Shown: piece by piece, positions 1-34,176 of the stretch
How the letters are laid out: each line of letters begins with the position of its first letter
Position numbering within the stretch: position 1 is the first letter of the stretch
Assembly (NCBI GenBank): GCA_964482725.1
Contig: CAYZYT010000001.1
Coordinates: 86,318 to 150,317 of the forward strand
From: an uncultured bacterium
GTDB lineage: Bacteria; Omnitrophota; Omnitrophia; Omnitrophales; Aquincolibacteriaceae
Length of the DNA stretch: 64,000 bases
Direction: 5' to 3'
Notes under the pieces: generated by a model
What the model saw: the letters and a program-made list of their open reading frames with translations, nothing else
What the model was told of the DNA's origin: nothing
The model's database searches: none
Program-made: the position numbers and the translations under genes

Positions 1-339
1 CAGAAGTTCGGCGTGATGGATCTTGGCGAGAGCCGCTGCAAAACTATCCGCATACGGAAGTTTCTGAAGAGCTTTATAGAGGGAAGCTTTCCGGGTGATC
101 GCCTCGTCGGCAGGAACAAGCTCGATGGGGAGAGTTTCGATAAGCTTCGCGACCTGCTCGGCCTTCTCAAGACCACACCGGCGGATCAGGATATAGTAAA
201 CTTCCCCCCAATTCACGATGCTCATAAGAAGACACTCGCCACGCTCCACGGCACCCGCGAAAGCGGTTTTCACCTTCTCGAATCCTTTTCCCCGTTCAAG
301 AAAAGTGATGAGAGCCGATGCGTCCAAAACCTTCGTCAT
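1..339 (-). CDS. vapC: PIN-domain ribonuclease toxin VapC. The CDS is partial: its 3' end lies beyond the window start. It was not in the ORF track because no stop codon falls inside the window.
   Basis: I translated the reverse complement of 1..339 by hand. It gives MTKVLDASALITFLERGKGFEKVKTAFAGAVERGECLLMSIVNWGEVYYIL..., a typical PIN/VapC N-terminus (DASALI). The ATG at 339..337 overlaps the stop codon of the upstream antitoxin ORF, as expected for translational coupling. Confidence 0.65.
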   Translation of the reverse strand, partial: MTKVLDASALITFLERGKGFEKVKTAFAGAVERGECLLMSIVNWGEVYYILIRRCGLEKAEQVAKLIETLPIELVPADEAITRKASLYKALQKLPYADSFAAALAKIHHAELL

Positions 340-578
340 GGCTTTTCTTCCCGATCTTTCTCCTGGCGCCGCGCCTGGAGCAGGTCCTTAAGCATCTGGC
401 CCTTGGAAGGAACGATTCCGGCCATCTGATCAAAATAATCCTCAGTGATAGGTTGAAGAATGACCTTTCCCTCGGATTCCACGATACAAAGCCGAGTCGC
501 CCGGGTAATGTTCAGACGTTTGCGGATCGCGGAAGGAATCACCACCTGGCCCTTAGTCGTCATAGAAGTGATCGTCAT
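336..578 (-). CDS. vapB: AbrB/MazE/SpoVT-type antitoxin (VapB-like)
   Basis: 80 aa. The motif TTKGQVVIPSAIRKRL is the swapped-hairpin motif of AbrB/MazE-type antitoxins. A GGAGGT RBS sits 8 nt upstream of the ATG at 578. The stop overlaps the PIN gene start. Confidence 0.8.
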   Translation of the reverse strand: MTITSMTTKGQVVIPSAIRKRLNITRATRLCIVESEGKVILQPITEDYFDQMAGIVPSKGQMLKDLLQARRQEKDREEKP

Positions 579-1429: not shown

Positions 1430-1825
1430 TTAGACACGCGCCAGCTTAAAAACTTTTCGAACAAAGAACAGGTAATCGGCGACTTCCTTTTCCGTGATCA
1501 ATTCGCCACCGCCATAGAGGTCCTGGTTACGCTTCATCCGCATCCCGTTTCCGAAGGTCAGGATATCCGGATCTTTCAGTATCTCGCTCATCCGTTCCAG
1601 GATCTTTACATGATGCCCCGGTATACTGCGCACCTTCAAGCCTTCCCGGGCCAACAGGGCGATCCCAACCTTCATGAGCGCCTGAAAAGCATAAGTAAAA
1701 CGCACTTCTGGAAAACGATCTTTTTCCGCGATCTCCAGGTCCCGACGCGCACTCGCAAAACGCTTGCGAACCTCTTCTGGCAGAAACTTCTGCTTTTGGA
1801 AAAAATCTCCACCAGCGACTGTCAT
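1430..1825 (-). CDS. HEPN-domain protein, the toxin component of a HEPN/MNT toxin-antitoxin pair
   Basis: 131 aa, all-alpha sequence of the HEPN family. It lies immediately downstream of, and overlaps by 4 nt, a nucleotidyltransferase gene. This is the classic HEPN-MNT operon layout. Confidence 0.7.
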   Translation of the reverse strand: MTVAGGDFFQKQKFLPEEVRKRFASARRDLEIAEKDRFPEVRFTYAFQALMKVGIALLAREGLKVRSIPGHHVKILERMSEILKDPDILTFGNGMRMKRNQDLYGGGELITEKEVADYLFFVRKVFKLARV

Positions 1826-2364
1826 AAAAGTCGAATTTTCTTTTTACCAGCAAGGGATTTGAGAAACGGATCTTTCTTGAGTTTTTCTTTATATTCCTTC
1901 GACCCCATGCTGATCAGATTGATTTCACGATCCATTTCTTTCTGGAGCCCTGTAATGGCGCTCTGAAGCGCCAACGTGTCATGCCTCCCCACCACTAGAA
2001 GATCAATATCGCTCGCAGCATCCATGGTTCCTTTGGCATAAGAACCAAAAATAAAAGCTTGCTCGACCCCTTGAACTCCGGAAACTGCTTCACGAAGCTT
2101 TTGCTCAAAACCTATTGTCTTAAGCACGATCCCCCTATATTCCTTAAAAAGCGGATACTCGCGGTTCAAGGAGTAATAGCAGGCATTTGCGCTGTCGCGA
2201 CACTTGAGGATACCCTCCCCGGCAAGCGCCTTGAGCTTCCGGGACAGGTTCCCGTCATCCAGAGAAAATTTTCGGGCCATTTCATTGACATAGAGCTCCG
2301 CATCCTCATGGAGGAAAAGGTATCCCAAAACCGCCTTCGTTTCTTTCGCTCTCAAGCTGATCAT
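1822..2364 (-). CDS. Minimal nucleotidyltransferase (MNT) antitoxin with an N-terminal winged-HTH
   Basis: 180 aa. The C-terminal motif GSYAKGTMDAASDIDLLVVG is the GS-x9-D-x-D signature of the Pol-beta nucleotidyltransferase superfamily. The N-terminus (LGYLFLHEDAELYVNEMARKFSLDDGNLSRKLKALAGEGIL) resembles a MarR/ArsR-like HTH. Confidence 0.75.
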   Translation of the reverse strand: MISLRAKETKAVLGYLFLHEDAELYVNEMARKFSLDDGNLSRKLKALAGEGILKCRDSANACYYSLNREYPLFKEYRGIVLKTIGFEQKLREAVSGVQGVEQAFIFGSYAKGTMDAASDIDLLVVGRHDTLALQSAITGLQKEMDREINLISMGSKEYKEKLKKDPFLKSLAGKKKIRLL

Positions 2365-2422: not shown

Positions 2423-2728
2423 TCAAACGCCACTTTCGAGCCCAAACTTTTCGAGCCGCTCTTTGAGGTGGTCCTGCACCTGCGGCAAAAGACTCCCGAA
2501 ATATTGATGATAAGGCCCCTGGCCCGCGAGCATATTATCCCGGGTCCAGGCAAGCATCTCCTTCTCCCAGGCCTCGTCACCCGTGATTTCCATCGTCCGC
2601 TGCACCACGGGATGAAGCATTACCCATCCGGATTCCCCAAAAGCCGCAAACACTTCCTCTTTTAGGACAAGCATCCTTTCGTAAGATTCCTTTGCCTCCC
2701 CAAACTTCCCCGCATGTTCAGCTAACAT
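2423..2728 (-). CDS. Hypothetical small protein (101 aa)
   Basis: ORF between the TPR gene and the TA module. No recognisable motifs. Acidic. Confidence 0.4.
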   Translation of the reverse strand: MLAEHAGKFGEAKESYERMLVLKEEVFAAFGESGWVMLHPVVQRTMEITGDEAWEKEMLAWTRDNMLAGQGPYHQYFGSLLPQVQDHLKERLEKFGLESGV

Positions 2729-2866
2729 CGCCTGCTTACCTAAACGGCGGATCTCCGTGTCCTCGAGAAGCTTTTTTTCTAAAAAATTTTTCTGGGACCC
2801 ATAATCAGCCCTGTAAAAATCACCGACTTTATCGGTCTGCTTCTTTTTGTTACCCTCTCCGGATTT

Positions 2867-3277
2867 TTACTCCTCAACCTTTCCCCCGCGCTTCTGCGCT
2901 TCGATCTTCTTGAGAAGACGCCGTTTTGTTTCTTCGTATTTCATTCGTCCAGGTAAGGTCAAATTCCTCCTCAGAAGCCAGTCGGTCTCCTCCATAGCCA
3001 AATAGTAATCACCGTTTTTCTCGTAAAATCTCAACAATGATCCCCTCGCGACCACTTCTGTGTCGTCGTTTTTCGCCATACGAAGAGCTTTTTTATAACA
3101 ATCAAGCGCCTCCTGCTTTTTTCCGCTCAAAGCTAATTGGTCGCCCTCATTTAATAAAGAGTAATATTTTACTAAAAGGCTTTCCGTTGTCTCAGTGGAC
3201 GCTGACACAGCAAAGCCTTCTACAGCAAAAAAAAGAATAAGAAATACGATTGAACTCTTACTATATATTTCCTTCAT
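2867..3277 (-). CDS. TPR-like secreted protein or lipoprotein, translationally coupled to the giant protein
   Basis: 136 aa. N-terminal signal peptide (MKEIYSKSSIVFLILFFAVEGFAVSA) followed by helical TPR-like repeats (ALDCYKKALRMAKNDD..., LLRFYEKNGDYYLAMEE). Its start overlaps the giant gene's stop by 4 nt. Confidence 0.6.
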   Translation of the reverse strand: MKEIYSKSSIVFLILFFAVEGFAVSASTETTESLLVKYYSLLNEGDQLALSGKKQEALDCYKKALRMAKNDDTEVVARGSLLRFYEKNGDYYLAMEETDWLLRRNLTLPGRMKYEETKRRLLKKIEAQKRGGKVEE

Positions 3278-6200
3278 CCTTCTAACCTCGATTCGAATAG
3301 AATGGGATCTATTGAATAAACTTTTCTTGTATCATCGTAGCTAACACCCATCCTTCCGCCATTAAGAAGATCGAAAAGCTGAACGACATTCGATGATGCA
3401 AGGCTTAGCTCTCTCATAAATAAGCTCGTTTTTCGGGCGATCTCACGCTCTTCGGCGCTGCCGTACTCAAAAGAGGAATCATAGCTGAAATCGTCGTGCC
3501 CGGCACCCAGGATTTCGATATTGCACTGATTGGGAAGCGCCGTGACATTCCCATTTTCGTCCACGATCTTAAAATCGCGCTGATCCAGAAGGGGCACTGC
3601 AAGACCGGGCTTCACACCACGCACGCGAACAAGCGTCTCAAGATAAGGATCATCGATAATCGCGTCTCCCACATACGGTCCCTCATAAACGACAAGCGTC
3701 TTGATCCGGGAACGATAGTCGTCCGGCATATGCTCCAACGCTTCGATCATAGGCTGAAAATTCCCCGAATGCGAAAAATGGGTGAACTTCATATTGGGAT
3801 CAAGGCCAAATTCCCGCTGGTTCAATTCGATAAGATCAACATAACTCTTCAATTCCCTTTCGATCTCATCGCGCATAAAATTGCACCCGAACCAGGTATC
3901 GGCCATCCACCGGAACACATTCCCAACGAGCGAGGTCTCTTCATAGAGCGTCACGGGAAGTGAACTCGTTGTAAGTATATTCCCATGCCGGTCACGGGCG
4001 ATGTTCCCGTCCGAATCAAAAAGCACGATGCCCGGAGTGCCCTTTTCCGCCTGGTCTGACTTAAGATCATTGATGAACTCCATGATGAGACCAGGGACAG
4101 CGTCGGGTGATTGATGCGTATTCCAGAATCCATTGCCGAATATAAACGCTACCAGCTGAGCTACGGATTCGGAGGAAAGATTCGTATTAAAATTATAAAA
4201 GAGCGGGTTCAGGTCCTGGAGGTCCGGTGCGATCGAAAAATCAAACGTGAATCGACCGTCTGCCGTCAGATAATGAGAAATCCCAAGATTATAATTGGTG
4301 AACTCAATAGCTCCGGAGGCATTGAACGATAGACGTCCGTATGTTTCCCCCGTCCAATCCCGGAACGAGATCTCCCGAACCAGGCCCTTGGGATCGAGAA
4401 GATCCCGGCGAGTCGTTCCATCAGGCATCCGTTCCTCGACAATCACTTGGATGATCCTTCCCTCCTCATCAACATCCCAACGGATGAGGCGCGGCTTACG
4501 ACCGTTGGAGTATTCCTCATAAATAGCGCGGATCTCAAGCCGTGTCCCTCTGGGGACATAAATAAAATTAATCGTCTTACCGTTCTTCGCCAGCTTCAGC
4601 AGCTTCGCGGACTCGCCCGCATAGATGATATCATCGGCAGAAGGCATTCCCCGCTCGATCCACTGGCTCAAACTCTCCCCGGCGCCCGTAAACTCCTGCA
4701 ACGCTTCCCGCGTAAACAGAGCGATCGCATACTGCTCGAGGCCTTCCGAAAAACCAAGATCTCGGATCGAGCCAAAAAGCTGCGCCAACATGGCCGGATC
4801 CAAAGAATGATAAATCGATTCGTCTACGGATTTGATAAGACTGTCGACAACGCTAAACCGCGTTGGCGAGGCTATGAAATCTCCGAAAAGGCCCGCGACG
4901 ACCCGGCTGGAAAAAGAACCGAGAAGCGAATCATCAAGGCCCCACCGAGCCATCAAAAACTCCGCGCTTACAGAGAGAACACCCCCCAAAGTTTCTCGGC
5001 TCAAAACAGCCTCTTTGATGAAGCCGAAGATCCCGGACGGATTAAAATCGATGGAACCGTTCCCCAGGAAAGCACCGGCAATATTTTCGGTGATGGCGGC
5101 GATCGGGGATCCTAATAATCGCATCAACCGGGGATCGAAGCCCATGGATCGGCTGACGAGTTCGAGACCGCCCAAGGTGAGTTGGGAAGCCATATGGGGA
5201 GCGATCTGGAGAAGACCGGCTTTGAGTGTAAGACTTGGATCAAAAAAAGCGGTTAAGCTCTGCGTGGCAACCAGAGAAAGGAGATTCGCGAACGGCGGGG
5301 CAAGGCCTCTTCTGAGCGCGATTTCGGAAACGCCCTGCATCGCAAGATGTTGAAGCCCTGCGTGCATAAAACTCGATGTGGCACTGCCAAGCCCTAAAAA
5401 TCCACCTCCCACAAAAGCTCCGGCAAGCTGCGTAAGCCTCGAATCCAGGCCCAATCCCTCAAGCCCTTTGGAAACACCGATCGTCAGCCCTGCCGCAACA
5501 AGCTGACGGGCCACATTCTGCGCAAAACTGAATGCATAGCCGGTCGTCACACCCTCCTTGATAATGGCCTGGGCAGGCGCTAACAAAAAATCCTTCACTT
5601 TGATAAGCCCGGACCCGATCGCATTCAATCCGCCTGAAAAACATTCCTTCAGAAAAACAAAGCCATTCTGAAAAAACCGGCCGACATAGGTCACGGAGTC
5701 CCAGAGCATCTTGCTGATATATAGAAAGCCCTGCTTGATCGTCTCAAAAACAGATTGTTGAGCAATACTCGAAAAAACCGCCTGCATCCCTTGAACGATA
5801 AACCCGCCGAGTCCGGCCACGATCCCGAGGATCCCCGCCACAAGCGCCGCATAGCCAAGGATTTTTCCGAATGCCGGGCTAAAGATCGAAACCACCCCAC
5901 TTGCGGCGGTCAACACAAGCGAAGCCACGAAAAAAAAGATGAACCAAAAAGCCCCTCGGATCTCCATAGCCTCCTGGTCCGAAAGTGCTTTCTCGAGAAT
6001 TGCCTGCTCTTCGGAAACCAGCAAAGGCCCGGCATTGTCTTCTGAAACCCAGACCTTGAGGAATTGTTCTTTCGTGATCGTCACCGATTCACCGTCCGTG
6101 CCCTTGCCTGCCTCCCGGTAAGTCACCTCGGCATCCGTCACTTTTTCAAGCATCACAAAATGATCTTCCCCGATATGCGCGATCATTCTCAAAGTGCAGG

Positions 6201-9200
6201 CACCGGCGGAAGACCCGCAAGCGGATCGATACATCGATCGAAGATCCTCGAAAGTGTATTTCCCCGCAGAGAAATTCCGGGCGTGGATCGCCGCCGTCCG
6301 GTCCAAGGCGAACAGGGAGATCAAAAGATCGCCTTCGGAGAATTTATGGATCACGCCCGTCAGAATATCGATCAAGATCGCTTCTTTCGCGATCACGTCC
6401 ATCGACACGTTCACGCCCTTCGAGGCCAACATCGCCTGGAGCGAAAGAAACGCTGACTGGCCAAAGTGAAGATCTCGGCTCCGCAACCATCCGAGGATCT
6501 TTTCCGTATCTTGTCGGGTGAGACTGACCGCTTCGGAAGGATCGAGTTTCAAATTTTGCAATAATTGCGCCCGAACCTCCAGAGACGCTGTCAGATATTC
6601 TTCCAGAAAGCTTTGGACCGCCCCGAGAATGGCCGCTTTTTGAGCCTCGCGCGTCGCCTTTTCCGAAGAATTTTGAAGTTCACTCCTGAGCGTCTCCGTA
6701 TCAAGCCGGCCCGCCGTCTTTGAACGGTTCACCCATTCATCGAATTCCTGCCGGGAGGCATCACGGCCGAGGATCCTTCTGAAAAAGTCCGTGATAATCG
6801 GTTCTATCTCCTGACGCAGAACATCCAGAAGGAACTCCTGTTTTTTTTGTTCCAGCTCCTGCCTTTTTTCGGCAGTCGCCTGTTCGATCTCCGATTTTTT
6901 GGATGCGACCGCGCCCGGGATCTCGGCCAACTGCATTTCACCGACCGCTATAAGTTCGGATCGCTGACCTGCCAAACGATTGATCGCATCCTGGATGCCC
7001 GGGACTTCGAACGTTTCTTCATGGCAGGATTTCCAAAAAACAAAACTACGGCATGTTTTTACATTCCGGAAACGCTGCGCTTGCAAGACTGCGATCTGAG
7101 TTGAGATCTGCCGCGCCCCGGCCTCCACGCTTTCTTTGATCTGCAAACGCGCGGCTTCATCCTGCCCGGCCAGACGATAATATGCGTCAAATTTCGCCTG
7201 CTCGATCTGCTGCTGAAACCTTTGGGATTCGGCTTCAAAATCACTGCGAGCTTTCACAAGCGTGATCTTCTTCAAGACTGCCTCGTTAGAATCCTGGCAT
7301 CCTCCCACCGGGCATTCATATTCATGGACCGCCACAAGATCGCCGACCGTGTTATAAGTCTCCCGGATCTTTCCGAACTCATAATAGGCTTTCATGCCAT
7401 CGATACGGCTCGTATAAATGATCTGCCCTTGAGCATCGTAAACCGTGGTGCTTTGCGTATCCTGAGACACCTTAAGTTTTTGGTAGCGCTCCAAAAATGG
7501 GCTGTAGGCCTCCGGGACCGCCAACGGGATATTCAATAACATCGGGGTATTTAAAAACAGAGGTTTTGTTTCCCCCGAGACAACAACCGTCTCGCTCCTT
7601 TCCTCTACAGTCGAAAAGAAACCCACCCCTGTCTTCTCGCGACCTTGGCCCATACCAAGCCCTTGGGCACCGAAAAAAGTCCATGGGCTGTTCGAGACCG
7701 ACGCCTGACGGATCTGCGCGGCACCCAACCCTTCCAAAAGCGTCAAGATTTCGTTACCGGCTTGTGAAAAGGAGCCGTCGGAAACCGCCATCGCGACCGC
7801 TTCGCCGGGTTTGATCCCTAAAAGAAAATTCTTGATCCTTGCGCGATCTCCGGACGATCCAAAACTTCCGGCGCAAAGATCCCACTGGTTCATCCCCGCC
7901 TTATAGACAGCAAACAAAAACCCGTTCCCCTCATGTTGGGCAATCTCTTGACCGCTCTCATCAAAAAGTTTCTGCGTTGTATCCGAAACAAGTTTCACTT
8001 CTTTTGGGAATGGAACTCCGTTGAACGCGATTTGGGACCGCTCGAAATGCGTATAGCCCGTCACGAGGCCAAGCGCATCCAAGACATACGAAAAAGTGTG
8101 CGTAACCCCGCTCGCGGATTCCGTCTTTGTGAGACGACCTGCGGTGTCATAGCTAAAAAACCATTCGCCGATCTTCAGTCGGATGCCGGTCCATCGATCC
8201 ATCTCGTCTTGTAAAAGCTCGTAAGTTTCCGCTTCAGGAAGAGCAATGGTGAAAAGCTGTCCATCCGGAAAACGCCCCCGGACCGGCACAGAGCGCTCGA
8301 TCTCCAGGATCAATCCGTCCGGAAACTGGATCTGCCCACTCAGGATATTCTGGTCGGAATCGAACGAAAGATTGACTCCATGCCCCCCGCCGGCAAGGGT
8401 CACCTCGCCGGTCCCATCCCTTTTGAAATCAAAAAGAACCTGCGACCCGTCCTGAGCCTCATACCCGATCAGATTCACCGCGCGCAATCCTGTCGCAGAG
8501 AAAAGTCTGGCAGGAAGGTCCTCTTCCGAAAAGCTCGCCTCCGGACCAGGCGCTTGTGTGTAGTCGGAATATTCATACAAGAAACCGTCCTTCGTAAGAT
8601 GCTTGATCAAGTCCCCATTTGAATCATAGAACCATGTCGTTCCTCGCTCATCCGTCACTTGTGTTCCGTCCCCAACAAAAGCATATTGCGTGCTGTTGAG
8701 GGCACGGCTGTTATAGGTCATTTGAGCGCCGATCAATTTCCCGTTCTCGTAGCTATAGCGCGTCTGAAGTTGATCCGGATCGGTCGCCGAAAGAAGTTTC
8801 CCGTCCTTGAACCGGCGTTCTTCTCCGCTTAGCCCATCCTTAAAAACGGTGATCTCTTGGCCGTCTGCATCAAATTCATAAAATAAAAGATATTCGCGAC
8901 CATCCGTCTGGATGATCTTTTGGAGGGCGCCATAGTGATAGTTGATCGTCCCCCCCGTAGACGTTTCACCAGGCGCCCCGATCGTTCCCTGCGACGAGTT
9001 GCCCGACACGGCATACTCGTGAACGGTTCCATCCGGCAAGGTCATGCGACTGACATTTTGTCCCCGAAGCTCCACCTGCGTTCCGTCGAGACGTTTAAAA
9101 TTAACAAGCTCACCGTCCCCCTCAAGGACATTTTGATAGTTCAAAACGGTGGGAATATCCAACAGCTCGGCCAGCGGCGGATAAACAACCGGAGTTTTTG

Positions 9201-12200
9201 AAGCAATGGCGGCCCCGACAGAAGTCAGCTGCATGAATTCGATCCGGAGACTCTTGAGTTTGCTAGCGAGAATCCCGGCAGGGCCTTCCCACAGAGGGTG
9301 ATCCATTTTTTTTAAAGCCAGGTAGGAAATATCCTTGATATAAAAAGCACCTGTTTTCCCCACTCCCGAAGACTGGCGAAAAACTTCGATCGTTACTTCC
9401 GCCTCCACCCCGGCCTTGTAAACCAATGGAAAATCGAATGTCTGGTAATCACTTCGGGTAGCGTCCACCTGAAAAGAATAAAGGGTAGACTGCTCGGAGG
9501 TCTTGAGTGTTAGTTGCAAAGTCTGGTTCCAATCCATCGAGGGATCTTTTTTGATCGTAAGAGTTAAAAAATCATAGTTTTCAATATTGACGGGAGTTGC
9601 GACATGCCGTGCAGACATTCCCAAAACGGGGCCGTTCAGATCCTGATAGTTGAATTGATAGCGCGCCAATGCGCCATCCCCAAAATCCCCCTCCACGGCC
9701 TGGGTAAGCTCACCGGGAGGAAGAGTTCCGGCACTAAAACCGACCACCGCATCCGCTCTTTCGAGCACATTGACAGGCGGTTCTTCCAAAATATGTGTTT
9801 TTTCGATCACGCGATCCGGCCGCTGCAGATACTCCGAAAGCTTCATGTATCGAGAGACGGTCTTCGAAGTCCCTGTTTGAGGATCCGGGACGGTTTCGAA
9901 AAAGCGAGCAAACGCGTTCGTGACCCTGCCCCCGGTAGGATCCAGATAATACGAGAAATAGGTGATCCCGTTCTGCGGGGTTTCAATGGCCTCTATGAGA
10001 TCCTTAGAATAAAAGACTTTTACGCCGCCTCCGACATCGGTCCCTTGCGATCCTGTCTGATCAATATCAAACCCGCCCCCTCCGACAAGCGCCACATGGG
10101 CCTTCGCGAGGTTCCCGTCATCGGCAAAAACAATGTCCGTCAGAGTGGCTGTGTCGGTTTGAATGGCATGGATTTGGCCTTGCTCAAAATCAACAACATA
10201 GCCGTCCTCCACAAGAGTTGTGAGTTGACCGCTCGCATCAAAGATCTTTTTACAGTCATTATCCTGGACGACAAAAGAACGGATCTCGCCCCGAAAACTC
10301 TGGTCGTAATAGAACCGTCCCGTTTCTAGTTTTCCGCGGGCCAGATCGATCACGAATGTCGCAAGCCCATTTTCAAAAAGGACCGTCCGACCGTTCCGGA
10401 ACACCCATTTCACGAGTTGTCCCTTTTGAAAATACTGGATCCCCCCGTCCGCCCGTCTGAGGACTCCCTGCACCAGCTTTCCATCCGAATCGACCGTAAA
10501 ATTCTCGAGAGTCTCCTTCTGCGCATAACCGCTTTCATAGCTGGCCTGATCGATAATCTTCTGCTGGATCAACGCACGGATCTCGGTTTCCGTCCTCCCG
10601 AGCAAAAGCTCCCATTGAATTTCATTTGAAGTTCTGACTTTCAAAGCTGAAAGTGGCCCCAGGAACAGATCGCCCGCGATAGGATTGCCGTCAAGGGGCT
10701 GGATCGAGATGGCCAGCTGGCTCATGGCGCCGGCAGGTTTCGGGATCGGAATGGAAATATACTGCCAGTCATAGGACAACGCACCCGTCAGGAAAACCTC
10801 GCCCATTCCCTTGAATTCGAATTTCAACCGAACATTTTCGGGCGTCCCGGGCGACAGCTTGACCGGGACAGAAAGAAAATCATATCCGGAAAGATCGAAT
10901 CCCGGGTAATTCGCCCAGATTCCCACGGGCTTCCCTGCCGACCGAAAATCAAAACTCAGATGCCTTACCTCCCCAAGACTGAGATCCATGGCGAGCATGC
11001 TCATCAAATGCCCCGACCCCGGCGTATAGAAAACTCCCTGGGACGAAGCTCGGTTTAAAATATCGCGTTGCAACCCGCCCAAAAGCGCGGTCGCGGAACC
11101 CGCGTGTTTTGGAGAAAGGCAATATTCCTGCAAATTGATCCTCCGGAGATTCTCTCCTTCCCCAAACTCGATCTCAACGTGATGGAATTTTCCACTCGGG
11201 GTCAAATAATTGAACACGCGCCCTGCTCCCCATTCCGGATCCACCAGCACAGGGACAAAAGCCTGTTGCTTGATGAGCCCCGCAGAAAGTCCATCCGGCA
11301 TGGCACTCGACCCGTCATAAAGCGGGGTCACAGTCTCGCCAAAATCAGGAGGCGGCAAGTTCGTTCGAATCGCAGGATTTAATTTGAAACTCAATCCTTG
11401 ATAAAGGGCATCAAAAGAGGATCGGACACCTGTCCGTCCCAGATATTTTTGAAAATAATTCCGGCTTGTATTCAGAAGGGAAAGAATAAAAGACGCCTGA
11501 TCCACACCGTAATACTGGTCGGAATAGACGGGGACCGTACTCATCACGGTTTCTCCGGTCTGGGGATCCTCCCGGGAAACTTTCCGGAGCTGGATCGCAT
11601 CAACAAAACCCGCGCCGGTCCGCATCTCCGGAAAATGAGACTCCATGTTTTTCAAAAATTGGAGTGTATAATGCGGCGCCAACGGAAAAGCGGCCGCGGT
11701 CCCATAAACAGACCCAGTATCCGTCCTTAAGAGATCGTCCGTTTCTGCAGCTCCGGGCAATCCTATCTTCCCCTGATAACCCTGCAACGGCACATCGCCG
11801 GCCGAAAGAAGACCCGGGATCCCCTGCGTGTTGACATATTCCGCTTGAGCGTAGAGAAAATTCCTCAGAGCGACTTCAAATTCCGGATATTGTGTTTCGT
11901 CCGCATGGATAAGCGGCCAGAACATCTGAAAGGCACCTCCGTCATAGGGCGTCGCCACATCGATCGTATCCCCGCTTTGAGTCTTAAAGGGACGGATCGC
12001 TATGTCCAGGTTCTTTAACGCGTCCTGGTATTGCGGATATTTTGCCGCAAGCCAGATCATTCCAGTCCTGAATTCGTTAAAAACACGGTCAATGTAATAA
12101 TTATTGATGAAATTCCATTGCCTTGTCCCCGCATCGAGGCCATACGCCCCGTGAAAACGTTTTTTACCAGGATCATAAAAAGCTGCATAGCCGGGTTCCT

Positions 12201-28600: not shown

Positions 28601-31600
28601 CTAGATCTTCTGACTGGCTTGGCTCACCGCGTCATCGATCTGCTTCACGAATTCCTCTTCGCTCTGGCCCCCAAGGATCTGCTTCACTTGCTGCGGGTTT
28701 TGACGGATCCGCCGGGCTTTCTCTACTAGAGCCGGATCGATCCCTTTTTTCTCAGAAAGAGCGAGGGCTTTGTCCGCGCGATCCAGGGCCTTGGACGCTT
28801 TCTCGGCGGAAAGAGTCTCCTTGCCAAGAGCTTTTTCCTGCTGCTTCATAATATCCTTCGCCTCGCCCCGCTCGATCTTCGGAGAATCTTCCCCGGCGAT
28901 CTTATTCAATTCTTTCTCGAGGTCTTTTTTCTTCGCGTCCATGTAAGCGCTTTCGCGCGGGCTCAGGCCTTCCGTCTTTTCATTGAGCCTTTTCAGTTCT
29001 TTCTCCATAAGATCTTTCCTGATCAGAAGATCCTGATCGGTCATCGCTTGCCCCGAGGTCTTGTAAGATTTGATCTCACCGCCCTCGCCGGGTTTAAAGA
29101 CCGTGGTCTTTCCCTGCGTCGCCTGCCGTGTCCGGACAAACCCGGCCGTGTAGGCGTCTCCGGGACCGGCCGTGGCACCGAACCGGTCATAAGTCTGATA
29201 GCCCACGTCATAAGAACTCAAACCCTTCGTTCTTAAACTCTCATCCACAAAAGCATCCTGAGCTTTGGCGAACTTCTTTGAAAGTTTCTCATTCGCTTTG
29301 ACAAGATCCCCGCCAAAATTCTTATCGGCATAGGTCTTCAGAGAGACCTCGTCGAATTTTGGCAGCGAAGCAAAATCCGCATCGGTATTGACCGAACGGA
29401 CCTTTCGGGAAGCGCTGGAACCGCTATCCCCCACCATCACTTCCTTGATCTTCACGCCGGTGTTCTTCTCAAATTCCGTCATAGTCTTCTTCACGCCGTT
29501 ATCCACCGCGGCATTCACCTCTTGGGAGATCACCTGGTTCATTTTCTTCACATCGTTCGCCCCCAGATGCCCCTTGCGCTCGAGCTGGCTTAATTCCTCC
29601 ATCCCGCCGCCGCGATAAAGTTTTTTGATCGCCTCCGCCCGCGCCGCATCGTCTTTGATCGCAAGAACTTTTTCAACCGACGTTTTCTTTTTGGCCAGCG
29701 ACTTTGAAAGCCCTTCCGTTCCGACTTCCGCGGCCTGTCCGAAGGCTGTCCGCACCGCGGTGGTTGCTTTCTTCGCACCATAAGACATAACCCCGGCCTG
29801 GGCTCTTCCGACCACCTCGGAAGTGGCCATGTTCAGGGTGGTTTTGGCCACCGCGCCCATGATCGAATCGCCGCTCTTCAGATGATCGTAGACCTGATAA
29901 CTCGCGTCGGCGGTGTTGTAAGCAACCTCGGAATAACCGACCGTCACGCTTCCCATAAGCATCCGAAGCGCCATGGCTTTATAAGAGGCTCCACCCTCGG
30001 CATCGGAGCCCGTGACGATCTCGCGCGCCGCGAGCTGCGCGGTATTCGTCATCGTCGCCTTGGAATTCCAGCGGGCATCCAGCGCATCTTGCTTCTGCTG
30101 CTCCTCGAGCTTATCGAGCTTGCTGCGAAGCGCCTCGACTTTTTCATGCTTGGCTTCCGCATCCTTGATCTTCTGTTTCGTGTCCCGGATATCCTGAGAC
30201 ATTCTCTGAAGCTCCTCCCGACGTTTCTGATCCGAGGCCTGGTTGGAGGCCTGGAATTTCTGATAGCTCGACTGTTTCTCCTTGGCCTCTTTTTCATCCA
30301 CCCAGCCCCACTGATCCGTGTAAACCTTGCCCTGACTGATCATGGAGACATCGCTTTCATAGATCTCAGGCTTCACCCACCCGCCTCCGGCCACAGGCGA
30401 CCACACTTTTCCTTCGCCATTCTTTTCCCCGGGTTGGGGGCTTCCGCTGATTTGAGAGGATCCCCCTTCTAAAGAAATAGGCGGAAGTTCTCCTTGGGCA
30501 TCCGTCTTGGGATCCCAGAAATCTCCGTCCAAAACGACCGGAGGCGCTTCTTCAAAAACACTTTCATCCAAAACTTCCTCTTCGTAAGGACTCTCCGTGC
30601 CCCCCCCCGTTGCCGAAAAAAGTTCGTCATAATCCACATCGCGGATCTTTTGGATGATCTCGTCGATCCTCTCCTGCGGTGGCTCTAAAAACTTCTTGTT
30701 CCTTGATTTAAAACCAAGTTCCACAAAGGCAGCCCCGACCCGGAGCTCATAAGAAGTATATACAGGGTCTTTCCCGACTTGCTTAAATCCGCCATCCCCC
30801 AAAGAAACCTTGGTATAGGTCATTTCCGGGCTCGGACTTTTGAGTCGATTATCAATGATGCTCTGAACGAATTTCTCACCCCCCTTAAAAGGATAAAAAA
30901 ACTGCGCGTGAACACTATGCTCCCAGGCAGGTGCGTCATTAGAATCTTCACGAAAAGGCACGATGGGCTCTGAAAAATAGGTTAATAGCATCCAGCTGAG
31001 CCCCGCCTGCTTTCCGCCGCCCGGCATTTTGTCCGTCGTAAGATAAATGCGTTCCGCAAGAAGCGTGCCGGCATTGATCACAAGCGGCTTAAGCGGGGCC
31101 GGAAGACGATCGAACTTGGGATTTCCTTTTTTAAATATCGCACGCCAACCCCCACTTGAGATCTCCGAGAGGATCTTTTCCACCATCGGATAAAAATCCA
31201 TCTGTTGTCCCATAAGCTTTATGGTGTCTGGCGACGTCGATGCATTGAAATAAACCACAGCGCCATCTTTTAGCGCGGCAAAATGCCACTGCTCGGAAGT
31301 TTTACCTTGCCCCCCATCCATAGTTTTTTTGGTCACAAAGCTTTCATCCGCGCCCTTCACCGGAGAAGCGTCTTTGGCGCCATACTGATAATTGTCCTTG
31401 ACCCACTGTTTACGGGTTGCGTACATCCTTTTTTGAAACCCTCCCCATTCCCCTCTGGGGCTAAAAAGATTGATCCGCACGTCGATATCCCATAACCGTT
31501 GTTTTTGGGGCCCGTAAGTTGGGTCATTCACCACCCTACTTTTCTCACGGGAATAATCCAATTCGACTTCATCTGCAGAAAAAGAGTTCCCGACGCTGGT

Positions 31601-33799
31601 TCGTTCAGAATCTCTCTCTCCTTTCTCTGCATAGTTTAGGATCAGTCCCTGTAAAACCCCGGGGATCTTGCCTGGACCAAATTGGGTTTTGTCCGTTGCC
31701 TCCTGATCCTTCGTCCACAGATCGTCGGAAATGACATAATCACATGGTCCGGAATCCGGAGCGGCCGGCTGCTTGGCCGCTTGGGCCTTCACGATCAGCT
31801 TCACGGGAAGTTTCTGCACTAATTTCCCCTGCGGATCACGGACCTCCACATCGGTCGAATAATTTCCGGTCCCGAGATTCTTCGTTTTATAGGCTAATTG
31901 AAAAGCAGCCTTCTGGCCGGCGGGGAGAGTCCCTTGCGCGGGCTCCACTATCAGCCAAGCTTCGTTGGTTTTGAGCGTGTAGGAAAATGGGCCGCCGCCA
32001 TTCGTTATTTCAAATGTTCCGGCAGGAGCGTCACTGCCCCGGAGGATCTCGGATGACAGATCCGCAGGATTAAGGGAAAGTCCGACTGTGCTTTTCACCT
32101 TCACGGTCACAGGGATCACGATCGGTTCTTTGAGGCCTTCTGACTCGACCTTGATCCCGGCTTTTTGCTCATCGCTACCGATTGAACGAGTATGGATAAC
32201 CGCCGCCAAGGCAGACTCCCCGCCGCTCCGGACAACGCCTTCCTGCGGGGTGACGACCAGCCAGGAGGAATCGCTTGATGTTTTAAATGTCACATCCTCA
32301 GAACCTGAATTTTTCAAAACAAGAGATTGCGGTTTCGGGTCTTGGCCGCTCTCCCCTTCAACGTTCAACGCCGAAGGTTCCACCCGAAGCGTGAAAACGG
32401 CTTCGACCTTGAGTTTCACAGAAAGTTTTTCTGGGCTGTTCTCCGCGTTGGGATCTATCACTTGGATCGTGGCCGGATAATCGCCCGCTTTCAGTCCGGA
32501 GGCGCGAACCTTTAAACTGATTTGCGCTGAATCATCTTTTTCAAGGTTCCCTGAAACAGAATCCAGTTCAAGCCACGCAGCATCTTTAACGCACTGGTAA
32601 TGCAACGTTCCGTCGCCGTCATTTTTAAGGGTAAAAGTTGCCGCCGCTTCAAGGTCCTTCCCAGCTTCGGTCTTCAGCTCAAGGACTTGCGGTTCCAGTT
32701 GAATCACGGGAGGCGTCGTGAGCTTGAGCGTTACCGGGATCTTTTTTGAGATCTTTGCGGTTTCATCGGCAATGACGATCTCACTTGTTTGCTCGCCGGG
32801 TGGGATCTCTTTCGTATCATAATTGACCGTAAGAACAGCTTCCTCACCGCCTTGCAGGGTCTTCGCGGCAGGCGTCACGGAAAGCCAAGGGCTCTTGGCT
32901 TCAACCTTGATCGTAACAGCAGACGATCCCGTATTCTCCACACGAAGGGTTTGAGGATTGACCGGTTTTCCTTTCACCGCTTCAGCGGATAGCGCCTGGG
33001 CACTTAGCGAAAGAACATCATTCGTCATAACGAACGCTGTGACCTGAACATTTTGAGGACTGTTCTTGGCGCCCGGCGCGATCACCTCGATCGTGGCAAC
33101 GTGGGTTCCGGCTGACATCGCGGAGCCTTGCATTTTGACGGTCACAGGAACGGATTGGCCGCTGGCGATCGACCCCTTCCCAGGCTCCGCGGTCATCCAT
33201 GAACTGCTGCCTTCTTCTGAAGCCATCCGCAGCGAATAATCAAGTGTTCCGGCGCCCTGGTTTTGGATTACAAAGGTCTGGTCCCCAGCCTTCTCCCCTT
33301 GCCGGAATTTCGTGCTTATTTGTCTCTTGTCCAGCATAAGCACTGCGCCGGGAAGAACACCCAGACGAACGAATATTGTTTGCGGACTGTTCTGAGCGTT
33401 TGCGTCCTCGATCACGATAGGTGCTACATAGTTACCTTCTTGAAGGTCCGCGGTCTTGAAACGAAGAGTGATCGGCTGCTCCGTATCGCCGGAGGAGGTG
33501 CCTTGCGTGGGGCTCGCCTCCACCCAGGGCATATTTGATTTGACGGAGAAGTTGAGAGTCCCGGCCCCGCTGTTTTTAACGCTGAAGCTTGCGTCCTGAA
33601 TGTTCTCTCCCATAACTCCCTGCCCCTTGAGCTCGGTTCCGCTCAAAACAATGAACGGCTTGCTCGGGTCTTTTGGGGTTTCGGTGAGGGAGGTTTTCAG
33701 CGTTTGAGTCAGATCCTCGAGCAAACCGGCGGAACTGACGGGGAGCATAAAAACACAGCACAAAATCAAGGCCAGGGATGCGCTGCGGACAAATTTCAT
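28601..33799 (-). CDS. Giant secreted protein (1733 aa) with about 7 tandem Ig-like beta-sandwich repeats, a central domain of unknown function, and a C-terminal coiled-coil/charged region
   Basis: The ATG at 33799 (MKFVRSASLALILCCVFMLPVSSAG, a signal peptide) has a GGGAG RBS 8 nt upstream; the ORF track extends to 34063. It contains repeating ~95-aa modules with the pattern ...G.GTL.Y.V....WL.V.P..G.......Q.V.V........G.Y...I.V.....NSPQ.I.V.L.V. The C-terminus has long K/E-rich coiled-coil stretches. Confidence 0.8.
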   Translation of the reverse strand: MKFVRSASLALILCCVFMLPVSSAGLLEDLTQTLKTSLTETPKDPSKPFIVLSGTELKGQGVMGENIQDASFSVKNSGAGTLNFSVKSNMPWVEASPTQGTSSGDTEQPITLRFKTADLQEGNYVAPIVIEDANAQNSPQTIFVRLGVLPGAVLMLDKRQISTKFRQGEKAGDQTFVIQNQGAGTLDYSLRMASEEGSSSWMTAEPGKGSIASGQSVPVTVKMQGSAMSAGTHVATIEVIAPGAKNSPQNVQVTAFVMTNDVLSLSAQALSAEAVKGKPVNPQTLRVENTGSSAVTIKVEAKSPWLSVTPAAKTLQGGEEAVLTVNYDTKEIPPGEQTSEIVIADETAKISKKIPVTLKLTTPPVIQLEPQVLELKTEAGKDLEAAATFTLKNDGDGTLHYQCVKDAAWLELDSVSGNLEKDDSAQISLKVRASGLKAGDYPATIQVIDPNAENSPEKLSVKLKVEAVFTLRVEPSALNVEGESGQDPKPQSLVLKNSGSEDVTFKTSSDSSWLVVTPQEGVVRSGGESALAAVIHTRSIGSDEQKAGIKVESEGLKEPIVIPVTVKVKSTVGLSLNPADLSSEILRGSDAPAGTFEITNGGGPFSYTLKTNEAWLIVEPAQGTLPAGQKAAFQLAYKTKNLGTGNYSTDVEVRDPQGKLVQKLPVKLIVKAQAAKQPAAPDSGPCDYVISDDLWTKDQEATDKTQFGPGKIPGVLQGLILNYAEKGERDSERTSVGNSFSADEVELDYSREKSRVVNDPTYGPQKQRLWDIDVRINLFSPRGEWGGFQKRMYATRKQWVKDNYQYGAKDASPVKGADESFVTKKTMDGGQGKTSEQWHFAALKDGAVVYFNASTSPDTIKLMGQQMDFYPMVEKILSEISSGGWRAIFKKGNPKFDRLPAPLKPLVINAGTLLAERIYLTTDKMPGGGKQAGLSWMLLTYFSEPIVPFREDSNDAPAWEHSVHAQFFYPFKGGEKFVQSIIDNRLKSPSPEMTYTKVSLGDGGFKQVGKDPVYTSYELRVGAAFVELGFKSRNKKFLEPPQERIDEIIQKIRDVDYDELFSATGGGTESPYEEEVLDESVFEEAPPVVLDGDFWDPKTDAQGELPPISLEGGSSQISGSPQPGEKNGEGKVWSPVAGGGWVKPEIYESDVSMISQGKVYTDQWGWVDEKEAKEKQSSYQKFQASNQASDQKRREELQRMSQDIRDTKQKIKDAEAKHEKVEALRSKLDKLEEQQKQDALDARWNSKATMTNTAQLAAREIVTGSDAEGGASYKAMALRMLMGSVTVGYSEVAYNTADASYQVYDHLKSGDSIMGAVAKTTLNMATSEVVGRAQAGVMSYGAKKATTAVRTAFGQAAEVGTEGLSKSLAKKKTSVEKVLAIKDDAARAEAIKKLYRGGGMEELSQLERKGHLGANDVKKMNQVISQEVNAAVDNGVKKTMTEFEKNTGVKIKEVMVGDSGSSASRKVRSVNTDADFASLPKFDEVSLKTYADKNFGGDLVKANEKLSKKFAKAQDAFVDESLRTKGLSSYDVGYQTYDRFGATAGPGDAYTAGFVRTRQATQGKTTVFKPGEGGEIKSYKTSGQAMTDQDLLIRKDLMEKELKRLNEKTEGLSPRESAYMDAKKKDLEKELNKIAGEDSPKIERGEAKDIMKQQEKALGKETLSAEKASKALDRADKALALSEKKGIDPALVEKARRIRQNPQQVKQILGGQSEEEFVKQIDDAVSQASQKI

Positions 33800-33903
33800 A
33801 TTTGATCTCCCGGAGCAAAGCAGTAATGAGATCCCATTTATAAAAAAACGGCCGGAGCTTTTAGACCCGGCCGTTTCCACTGAGTCTATTGTGCCACTTA
33901 ACG

Positions 33904-34176
33904 CTAGAACCCCATTTTCCTTTTCATGTCGTTGCCAGACTTCTGGGCTTCCTTCATGACCTTCTCGGCTTCCCGTCTGGTACAGGCGCCAAGACGATCC
34001 GCTTTTCGTTTTAACAGGATCTGATCCTTTTCCATCCCCTGCTTTCCAAGCGTCCCAAACCAATCTCCGGCTTGATCGATCGGAGTATCCTTAGTGCAAT
34101 CCGCGGCATAAGCGGTCAGGGTGAACCCGCCAAGCATAAGAGTGACAACAAAAAACGCGATGACGAATTTACGCAT
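33904..34176 (-). CDS. Small secreted protein (90 aa), first gene of the operon encoding the giant Ig-repeat protein
   Basis: Signal peptide (MRKFVIAFFVVTLMLGGFTLTAYA). Two Cys and a K/E-rich tail. Confidence 0.5.
   Translation of the reverse strand: MRKFVIAFFVVTLMLGGFTLTAYAADCTKDTPIDQAGDWFGTLGKQGMEKDQILLKRKADRLGACTRREAEKVMKEAQKSGNDMKRKMGF

Follow-up and report, generated by a model that had tools for sequence, protein, structure and literature searches.

A likely polymorphic-toxin-type effector of a Candidatus Omnitrophota bacterium: a giant YD/RHS-repeat protein with a Cys-to-Ser C39-fold domain, a double-glycine-type site and exchangeable tails that co-vary with the downstream gene

Polymorphic toxins are a main means of bacterial competition, and few of their release devices have been recognized, namely the Rhs aspartyl protease and the HINT, ZU5, PrsW, caspase-like and papain-like domains. 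Double-glycine bacteriocins carry leaders of the consensus LSxxELxxIxGG, and many of them are hydrophobic and rich in glycine after the cut site. In the Tle/Tli pairs of type VI secretion (T6SS), lipase-type effectors are matched by periplasmic repeat proteins that provide immunity. The Omnitrophota, which are tiny, uncultured and probably parasitic or predatory, encode giant proteins that are largely unexplained. Among polymorphic toxins with Rhs/YD repeats, the Sec-signal ('T2SS') class includes the RHS-Ntox10 toxins of Bacteroidetes and Verrucomicrobia, Ntox10 having been described only from polymorphic toxins with RHS repeats, and precedents exist for the toxin domains Tox-ABhydrolase-1 to -3 and for TPR-containing immunity proteins (Zhang et al. 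2012, PMC3482391). A study of giant Omnitrophota proteins proposed C39 domains as their possible cutters (West-Roberts et al. 2023, 10.1101/2023.11.21.568195), and a second preprint contains a 24-protein PF03412 architecture cluster (bioRxiv 10.64898/2026.06.07.730766). Here we analyze a giant gene in a stretch of 64,000 nucleotides from an uncultured Omnitrophota bacterium (the window; contig CAYZYT010000001.1, positions 86,318 to 150,317), of which a preliminary description had been drawn up from the letters. The product is likely to be an effector of the polymorphic-toxin type, built of many domains and exported by Sec, from a bacterium of Candidatus Omnitrophota, and the case for this is built on observed architecture, folds, motif conservation, tail exchange and tail-partner co-variation. 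The effector logic that the preliminary description had seen in the layout (repeat shell, protease-like unit, membrane module, enzymatic tail and partner gene) gains its support from the tail exchange and the partner co-variation.

The gene belongs to a large family. With the last 1,008 amino acids (aa) as profile, an exhaustive search of representatives returned, at E values up to 1e-3, no fewer than 223 clusters (50% identity), the majority of 3-5 thousand residues (kaa); the domain combination, which had been called unprecedented, is therefore not unique to the window gene. The named source records are Candidatus Omnitrophota, and the hosts of the family appear to be Omnitrophota. The giants resemble the Sec class of Rhs toxins in their N-terminal signal, long YD/RHS repeats, conserved body with exchangeable tails (Ntox10 in the relative P0014) and co-varying gene directly downstream, and some loci have what may be orphan cassette fragments. 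They differ from that class in having neither the PxxxxDPxGL core-end motif nor an aspartyl autoprotease, and in the modules placed between repeats and toxin, which are without a Pfam family: first a coiled coil and a DUF4214-like segment, next a C39 domain of the Ser variant with a double-glycine site, and last a transmembrane (TM) hairpin and a Gly-rich region of ~220 aa. Further differences are the junction block GRSxGLDPR, a GH192-like glucanase inserted between the repeat blocks, the size of 3-5 kaa and the apparent Omnitrophota hosts. The lack of PxxxxDPxGL had already been remarked upon, and a regular expression for it found no match in the giant protein, where the sole DPxGL (aa 4099) sits within the tail. 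The position of the membrane hairpin, between the repeats and the tail, argues against encapsulation of the toxin in a YD cocoon. In the searchable literature, we found no paper tying Omnitrophota to Rhs or polymorphic toxins.

Polymorphic toxins are recognized by an N-terminal trafficking signal, central RHS/YD repeats and a shared body that ends in unrelated C-terminal domains (PMC3482391), and the giant protein and its relatives display each of these. In pairwise comparisons of the window with loci of similar scaffold, identity is 40-75% as far as the last conserved block, GGLELVSRSMGFDPRL (GRSxGLDPR; aa 3840-3855, nt 5125-5172), beyond which it falls to 14-30%, the drop being sharp past aa ~3870. 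The C-terminal domain of the window protein is present in 63 of 115 tails and absent from 52, and 15 tail clusters were distinguished among 64 loci, metagenomic and genomic, whose 3' end is complete, so that the expectation of variable C-termini on a retained scaffold was borne out. P0014 joins a window-like scaffold to an Ntox10 tail (E 3.7e-24), and the tail of P0083, of a type common to P0020, P0034 and L009, shows a weak Tox-ART-HYD1 match (E 6.5e-4) that lies under the cut-off; most other tails have no Pfam match. The notion that invariant tails among close orthologues would indicate an adhesin was ruled out, as the similar scaffolds of L006, L007, L008, L009, L015 and L025 carry other tails. 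L007, L008, L015, L039 and L043 have orphan tail or junction fragments downstream; in the window, none was seen over the 3.3 kb that follow the giant gene. The GC content, 0.52-0.56 in the scaffold, falls over the cassette, with 0.49 for the hydrolase domain and 0.40-0.46 where the two genes join.

The tail of the window protein ends in the hydrolase-like domain that had been proposed from the HSGN and GAGHDD motifs. FGNG, HSG with S4308 and GAGH with H4398 follow each other in that order, and their G, S and H are invariant. The domain matched neither the Pfam alpha/beta-hydrolase or toxin families nor PDB sequences; with its Ser/His motifs, it is alpha/beta-hydrolase-like and probably an esterase or lipase. 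A plain structural adhesin or S-layer-like protein with an accidental resemblance to toxin systems would share the long repeats, beta-helix, repeated beta modules and signal peptide, all of which are common in adhesins; we regard it as very improbable, given that catalytic residues are kept in three enzyme-like domains, that the exchangeable C-termini co-vary with the downstream gene and that a relative has an Ntox10 tail. Other tails deserve mention in their own right. A second, unrelated hydrolase-like type, with the pattern 'AHSAGTE ... SPR ... GD ... H' and no Pfam match, recurs in P0013, P0096, P0119 and several loci, and further recurrent types without annotation include one with a PD40 beta-propeller partner and one with a HEAT-repeat partner. 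In L013, L030 and L059, the giant open reading frame (ORF) ends early and the tail resumes in another frame, with strong tblastn matches right after the stop; these 3' ends are either frameshifted pseudogenes or assembly errors.

The gene directly downstream is the candidate immunity partner. The giant ORF overlaps the ORF 2867..3277 by 4 nt (ATGA), as the preliminary description had stated. This ORF of 136 aa and a neighboring one of 101 aa had been offered as separate partners, and they turned out to be the two halves of one conserved gene, broken by a single in-frame TAA at 2867-2869. The partner is one gene of 279-294 aa in L001, L003 and L005, to whose two ends the 136-aa and 101-aa ORFs align, and in the window its reading frame is continuous across the TAA. 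Contigs that were separately assembled from the sequencing runs SRR12261223, -24, -25 and -27 have the same 136/101-aa split, and its occurrence in four separate runs points to a property of the population rather than to a random assembly error. The 136-aa ORF had also been called a lipoprotein, which does not hold: its signal peptide MKEIYSKSSIVFLILFFAVEGFAVSAS contains no Cys and hence no lipobox, and the Cys that the orthologues have is outside any canonical lipobox. TPR matches are weak in the window partner and clearer in that of L005; across the loci, the partners are exported repeat proteins of the TPR, HEAT and PD40 kinds.

Tail and partner change together. Close orthologues (L001, L003, L005, P0004 and P0007) agree in both tail and partner gene, and tail type T1 is paired with downstream type D1 in 26 of 28 non-redundant loci. 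The other pairs are T4-D3 (PD40 propeller), T5-D8 (HEAT), T6-D12, T7-D7 (TPR) and T2 with D4 or D14. The strength of the association between tail clusters and adjacent gene clusters was reached by none of 5,000 label permutations, with or without T1, so that the matching downstream gene named earlier as a polymorphic-toxin signature was indeed found. Within T1/D1, the identities of tail and partner correlate (rho 0.40, over locus pairs that are not independent of each other), and those of scaffold and tail (rho -0.03) or scaffold and partner (rho -0.01) do not; the near-zero scaffold values indicate that relatedness alone does not explain the pairing. Compared with the window, L007, L025 and L006 have scaffolds of 61-62% identity with tails of 22-30% and partners of 22-31%, and L020, which possesses a tandem second partner paralogue, has a scaffold of 48% with a tail of 68% and a partner of 47%. 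The downstream gene thus co-varies with the tail as in polymorphic toxins, and protection by its product is predicted.

A Ser/His hydrolase-like tail whose immediate downstream neighbor encodes an exported protein of helical repeats recalls the Tle/Tli pairs as well as the Tox-ABhydrolase toxins; the differences are that the window tail has no Pfam alpha/beta-hydrolase or toxin match and that delivery would not be by T6SS. The precedents of alpha/beta-hydrolase toxin domains and TPR immunity proteins (PMC3482391) count in favor of a toxin. The same pairing could arise if the protein were a carrier of enzymes for predation or attachment, a surface scaffold presenting exchangeable enzymes (lipase/esterase, glucanase) to the envelope of prey or host, with the downstream repeat protein as a tail-specific chaperone, export or anchoring factor. 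Several observations suit such a carrier: the partners are generic repeat proteins (TPR, HEAT, PD40), the interruption of the partner here has no obvious consequence for the population, the glucanase keeps its catalytic residues and is accompanied by a lectin-like domain, and giant Omnitrophota proteins have been tied to prey adhesion and cell-wall digestion (10.1101/2023.11.21.568195). We nevertheless consider it unlikely, as same-scaffold relatives bear Ntox10, known only from polymorphic toxins (PMC3482391), or the weak ART-HYD1 match, as the orphan tail and junction fragments and the scaffold-independent exchange of cassettes are typical of toxin/immunity arms races, and as a chaperone would be expected to bind the conserved core rather than the variable tail.

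Ahead of the exchangeable tail of this likely effector lies a domain with the fold of the C39 peptidases. An AlphaFold2 model computed from 40 family sequences reached a pLDDT of 92.5, and the best solved matches in Foldseek were the double-glycine peptidase domains of PCAT1, LahT150 (crystallized with a leader peptide) and ComA, with target-normalized TM-scores of 0.70 for LahT150, 0.71 for ComA and 0.72 at the maximum. The family profile matched PCAT1 (E 9.6e-7), aligning H3510 to His99 and E3526, a position occupied by Asp in many relatives, to Asp115. In hhalign, the family profile and the PCAT1 peptidase gave a probability of 96% over an alignment that covered only the His-side half. The window domain scored 13.5 bits against the Pfam C39 family (PF03412), below the gathering cut-off of 22, and the relatives P0066 (31.7 bits), P0084 (33.0 bits) and P0038 (23.9 bits) exceeded it. 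The papain-like fold, the catalytic His with Asp/Glu and a double-glycine-type site are thus all present, and the catalytic Cys expected at the N-terminus of helix 1 is not; S3412, which begins helix 1 in the model, stands in that column. Because hhalign aligned the His-side half only, the nucleophile column was taken from a sister class (L074 and L076-L084), whose gap-free alignment with the window runs from the WL motif as far as ILIDILTG and shows Cys ('ILNCAINAL') opposite the Ser of the window ('HFGQSAFLSL'). This Cys at the S3412 column indicates, at the level of aligned residues, that the window family is a natural Cys-to-Ser variant of the C39 fold. Across 40 diverse members, H3408, S3412, D3441, S3458 and H3510 are among the invariant residues. 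The papain-fold C39-like segment of the preliminary description accordingly stands as a fold (model, Foldseek and profile agree), whereas the cysteines of SACGSSAGAC, to which it had pointed, are not the active site. These two residues (aa 3489-3498, nt ~6196-6225; C202 and C209 of alignment A5) are kept in close relatives only and sit in a loop ahead of the His strand, where a disulfide between them is possible in an extracytoplasmic domain.

Directly after the C39-like domain and before the first TM helix, the family has the motif [LI][ST]xxE[AT]xx[IV][RK]G[AS], which in the window reads LSDQEAMEIRGA|FWF and which we take to match the double-glycine leader consensus. The motif core is in place in 164 of 173 family proteins and the 12-residue form in 122; the corresponding regular expression gave 125 matches in 509,036 aa, 122 of them at the motif site. 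The full cleavage consensus, including G-[AGS] at -2/-1, is kept in ~95% of members. The likeness to PCAT1, LahT and ComA therefore extends from the shared fold and the aligned catalytic His and Asp/Glu to a substrate consensus matched by the adjoining site, and the region behind that site is hydrophobic and Gly-rich, as in many double-glycine bacteriocins. The differences are these: the catalytic Cys has given way to Ser, the domain lacks a fused ABC transporter and lies inside a Sec-exported protein at a predicted extracytoplasmic position, the cleavage motif occurs in cis, ~55 residues past the catalytic His, and the 'cargo' measures ~890 aa. Hydropathy resolves two clear TM helices behind the motif, conserved in the family, where a bundle of glycine-zipper helices had been described; a Gly-rich region follows them. 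Pfam and PDB searches found no relative of this TM/Gly-rich module.

The sister class offers side observations of its own. In L077 (ORF 4620-14670), for example, the C39-like domain is near the N-terminus (ORF aa 598-740) and is succeeded by a double-glycine-like motif, LSKQRMKEIRGA|AGSDTD, then by hydrophilic sequence and thousands of residues. Domains of this class may correspond to those that have been mentioned as N-terminal C39 domains of 'Archaeovorin'-type proteins. The window family shares with the proteins of West-Roberts et al. (10.1101/2023.11.21.568195) the phylum and very long exported chains with C39-type domains, and the Cys-type class with the same motif recovered here provides a further likeness to the giant C39 proteins of Omnitrophota. 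The two preprints describe proteins of >30 kaa or list Pfam architectures only, whereas the window family is mostly of 3-5 kaa, and in the searched text of both the double-glycine site, Ser variant, TM/Gly-rich module, exchangeable tails and co-varying partners are not reported.

Together, the invariant Ser and His and the adjoining double-glycine site suggest self-cleavage after A3580. What we infer about cleavage, topology, toxicity, immunity and target can be put as one course of events. The giant protein would be exported by Sec, and its N-terminal ~3,500 aa would lie outside the cytoplasm, there to bind and break down glycans of a target surface. The C39-fold domain (Ser/His/Glu) would cut its own chain in cis after GA3580 and free a C-terminal fragment of ~890 aa, whose hydrophobic Gly-rich N-terminus would insert into a membrane as the cargo of double-glycine bacteriocins does, and the enzymatic toxin tail would be neutralized in the producer by the translationally coupled, exported TPR partner. 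The boldest part of this course, an extracytoplasmic C39-fold protease that switched from Cys to Ser, cuts itself at a double-glycine site and launches a bacteriocin-like cargo (membrane-inserting Gly-rich segment and exchangeable enzyme toxin) from a giant glycan-binding and glycan-degrading surface protein of ultra-small, possibly predatory Omnitrophota, we advance tentatively, rating its chances a little under even. Such a release mechanism has not been described for polymorphic toxins; should it prove true, the domain would be the first serine-type C39 peptidase known from nature, and double-glycine bacteriocin processing would be linked in evolution to Rhs-type toxin delivery.

The invariance of the serine can also be read in another way, with the C39-like domain as a pseudo-protease that clamps the adjacent leader-like helix without cutting it, in the manner of HlyB, the protein remaining whole and TM-anchored. 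Ser in place of Cys in 40 of 40 diverse members is what this predicts, Cys-less C39-like domains exist as solved structures (3b79 is among the fold matches), and 10.1101/2023.11.21.568195 refers to the HlyB C39-like domain as a chaperone. A binding-only module, however, would not be expected to hold Ser, His and the Asp/Glu position invariant or conserved, the full cleavage consensus is widely retained, the sister class keeps Cys with the same motif, and at a predicted extracytoplasmic position Ser would be less sensitive to oxidation; we therefore find a pseudo-protease doubtful.

Several points weigh against a polymorphic-toxin-type effector. The partner gene is interrupted in the window population, which is odd for an active self-toxic enzyme, and most tail and partner types belong to no recognized toxin or immunity family. 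The correlation of tail and partner identity suffers from the mutual dependence of its locus pairs. A Ser nucleophile in a fold that is usually Cys-based could mean that the domain is a non-catalytic leader-binding module. The signal peptide and two TM helices are predicted to place both large parts outside the cytoplasmic membrane, which poses the problem of crossing the outer membrane, and no secretion system adjoins the giant gene, upstream of which lie a FadL-type gene, gpsA, dnaJ and grpE. A polymorphic-toxin-type effector remains the likely reading with these points included. New here is a putative release cassette, in which a Ser-variant C39 fold has its own double-glycine site and is joined to a membrane hairpin and a Gly-rich region, in at least 223 clusters, together with a catalogue of more than a dozen uncharacterized tail and partner types. 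Testable hypotheses on where cleavage would occur, on which residues would be catalytic and on how toxin and immunity proteins would pair are offered to research on Omnitrophota and interbacterial toxins.

Table 1. Features of the giant gene and its partner (coordinates are those of the window; residues are numbered in the giant protein)
Feature	Residues (aa)	Position (nt)	Strand	Description or basis
Giant ORF		3274..16689	minus	4,471 codons counted from the first GTG
N-terminal export signal		16438..16608	minus	basic N-region, hydrophobic core AVAFCMVLIFSS, then VLA|DS
Right-handed beta-helix-like region	172-312	15754..16176	minus	NCBIfam NosD family and Pfam Beta_helix
Repeated beta-rich modules	570-850	14140..14982	minus	segment profile repeats in homologues
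YD-like repeat block 1	850-1320	12730..14142	minus	cross-matches the block 2 profile
(alpha/alpha)6 glycoside-hydrolase domain	1321-1900	10990..12729	minus	8xuj, PF10091
Beta-rich region	1900-2500	9190..10992	minus	conserved in orthologues
YD/RHS repeat block 2	2500-2920	7930..9192	minus	Pfam RHS_repeat and TIGR01643
ILEI/PANDER-like domain	2946-3010	7660..7854	minus	Pfam PF15711
Coiled-coil and DUF4214-like segment	3100-3400	6490..7392	minus	start of the family-wide core
C39-fold peptidase-like domain	3400-3564	5998..6492	minus	AlphaFold2, Foldseek, profile, hhalign
Double-glycine-type motif LSDQEAMEIRGA	3569-3580	5950..5985	minus	predicted cut after A3580
Hairpin of two TM helices	3581-3636	5782..5949	minus	hydropathy 2.3-2.4 over 19 aa
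Gly-rich amphipathic region	3637-3860	5110..5781	minus	ends in block GGLELVSRSMGFDPRL
Exchangeable tail	3861-4471	3277..5109	minus	linker, beta-hairpin (YD-like) segment, hydrolase-like domain
Alpha/beta-hydrolase-like domain	~4140-4471	3277-4272	minus	FGNG, S4308 in HSG, H4398 in GAGH
Partner gene, candidate immunity		2423..3277	minus	~284 codons, signal peptide and TPR-like helical repeats

How much of the family was retrieved differed between searches. A word-index search with the last 1,008 aa retrieved only three homologues, one of them named Candidatus Omnitrophota, and a scan of species-representative genomes retrieved five loci, two labeled Omnitrophota. The word-indexed database served this family poorly: a query of aa 3100-3580 returned nothing, probably through coiled-coil words swamping the candidate list, and a 40-sequence profile of the C39-like domain returned one fragment. 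The productive routes were the exhaustive search of representatives and scans of contigs, the profile for the metagenome scan being built from 12 sequences. The giants of L001, L003 and L005 have 46-59% identity to the window protein, with which they are colinear from aa ~570 through to the end, and in the comparison of these three with the window no segment stands out as variable. Hidden Markov models (HMMs) of single segments defined the core common to the family as YD repeats, coiled coil, DUF4214-like segment, C39-like domain, TM hairpin, Gly-rich region and tail, and the full architecture, including the glucanase insert, recurs in P0004, P0007, P0011, P0014, P0020, P0021, P0034 and P0051. 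HMMs of the coiled-coil and DUF4214-like segment matched nearly all family members, confirming the segment noted in the preliminary description as a family-wide one, but the DUF4214 match itself had an E value of 0.16 and was obtained in only one of five orthologues.

The single giant ORF of about 4.4 kaa and a likely N-terminal signal peptide both emerged as the preliminary description had them. The probable start, by reading of the sequence, is the GTG at codon 28 (nt 16608), upstream of which GAGGGGG would serve as the ribosome-binding site. The predicted export signal was called from sequence reading and a hydropathy scan and consists of a basic stretch, the hydrophobic core and a VLA|DS end. 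PDB and Pfam searches found nothing significant for the N-terminal 540 aa, within which the suggested pectin-lyase-like beta-helix received weak to moderate support: the NosD family (NCBIfam) matched aa 172-295 with an E value of 1.3e-8, and the Pfam Beta_helix match (E 1.2e-3) lay under the cut-off. Of the proposed Ig-like domains, what stood was a module that repeats in homologues, the HMM of aa 570-850 finding up to eight tandem copies there; an Ig fold was not supported, as Pfam and PDB searches of this region gave no significant match. Two blocks of YD/RHS-type repeats had been recognized correctly. In block 2 (aa 2847-2882), Pfam RHS_repeat matched with an E value of 2.3e-9 and the TIGR01643 YD repeat with 1.4e-6, and block 1 is linked to it by HMMs that cross-match in family members. 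An ILEI/PANDER-like domain between YD block 2 and the coiled coil, which the preliminary description did not list, matched PF15711 with an E value of 2.6e-7 (31.5 bits against a cut-off of 27); what is known of its family suggests that it may bind glycans.

The domain embedded between the two repeat blocks is the only part for which the library searches on the whole protein found a solved relative. As a single sequence it matched PDB 8xuj with an E value of 3.9e-11, a profile of the window protein and three orthologues improved this to 6e-16 with homology across ~350 residues, and Pfam PF10091 ('putative glucoamylase') matched with an E value of 3.8e-5. 8XUJ is EeSGL1, the founding beta-1,2-glucanase of GH192, a family placed in clan GH-S together with GH144 and GH162, and its catalytic residues are D149 and E221 (PMC12102758). 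In the alignment, D1455 stands opposite D149 and E1539 opposite E221, neither of them varying among four orthologues, so that homology to a characterized member is accompanied by retention of the catalytic pair, and the domain looks catalytically competent as judged by these residues. Because 8XUJ is in clan GH-S and the catalytic residues align, the earlier assignment to a GH144/DUF3131-like (alpha/alpha)6 domain was right at the clan level, the nearest family being GH192. EeSGL1 and the window domain thus share the homologous region and the catalytic pair; the difference is that in the giant protein the glucanase is an internal domain of a 4.4-kaa chain, between YD blocks. A beta-1,2-glucanase in so unusual a place hints at the envelope glycan that may be targeted.

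Upstream of the giant gene and divergent from it, a FadL/TodX-family outer-membrane protein is encoded at 17332-18771 (plus strand), and the genes farther upstream, gpsA, dnaJ and grpE, are housekeeping ones. The FadL-type protein was considered as a secretion partner and rejected, since among the fetched loci it is a neighbor only here and in L047 (65% identity). On the other side of the giant gene, the two toxin-antitoxin modules mentioned in the preliminary description could be located. One consists of an MntA-like HTH-nucleotidyltransferase gene (1822-2364, minus strand) that overlaps by 4 nt a gene for a 131-aa partner (1430-1825), for which no family match was found. The other comprises a weak MazE-like ORF (336-578, minus strand) and a PIN gene that crosses the start of the window, as seen in a Logan contig (L086, 5700-6334); a T2SSE-type ATPase gene comes next on that contig. 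Another long ORF of the window, of 1,820 aa, lies at 28601-34063 on the minus strand.

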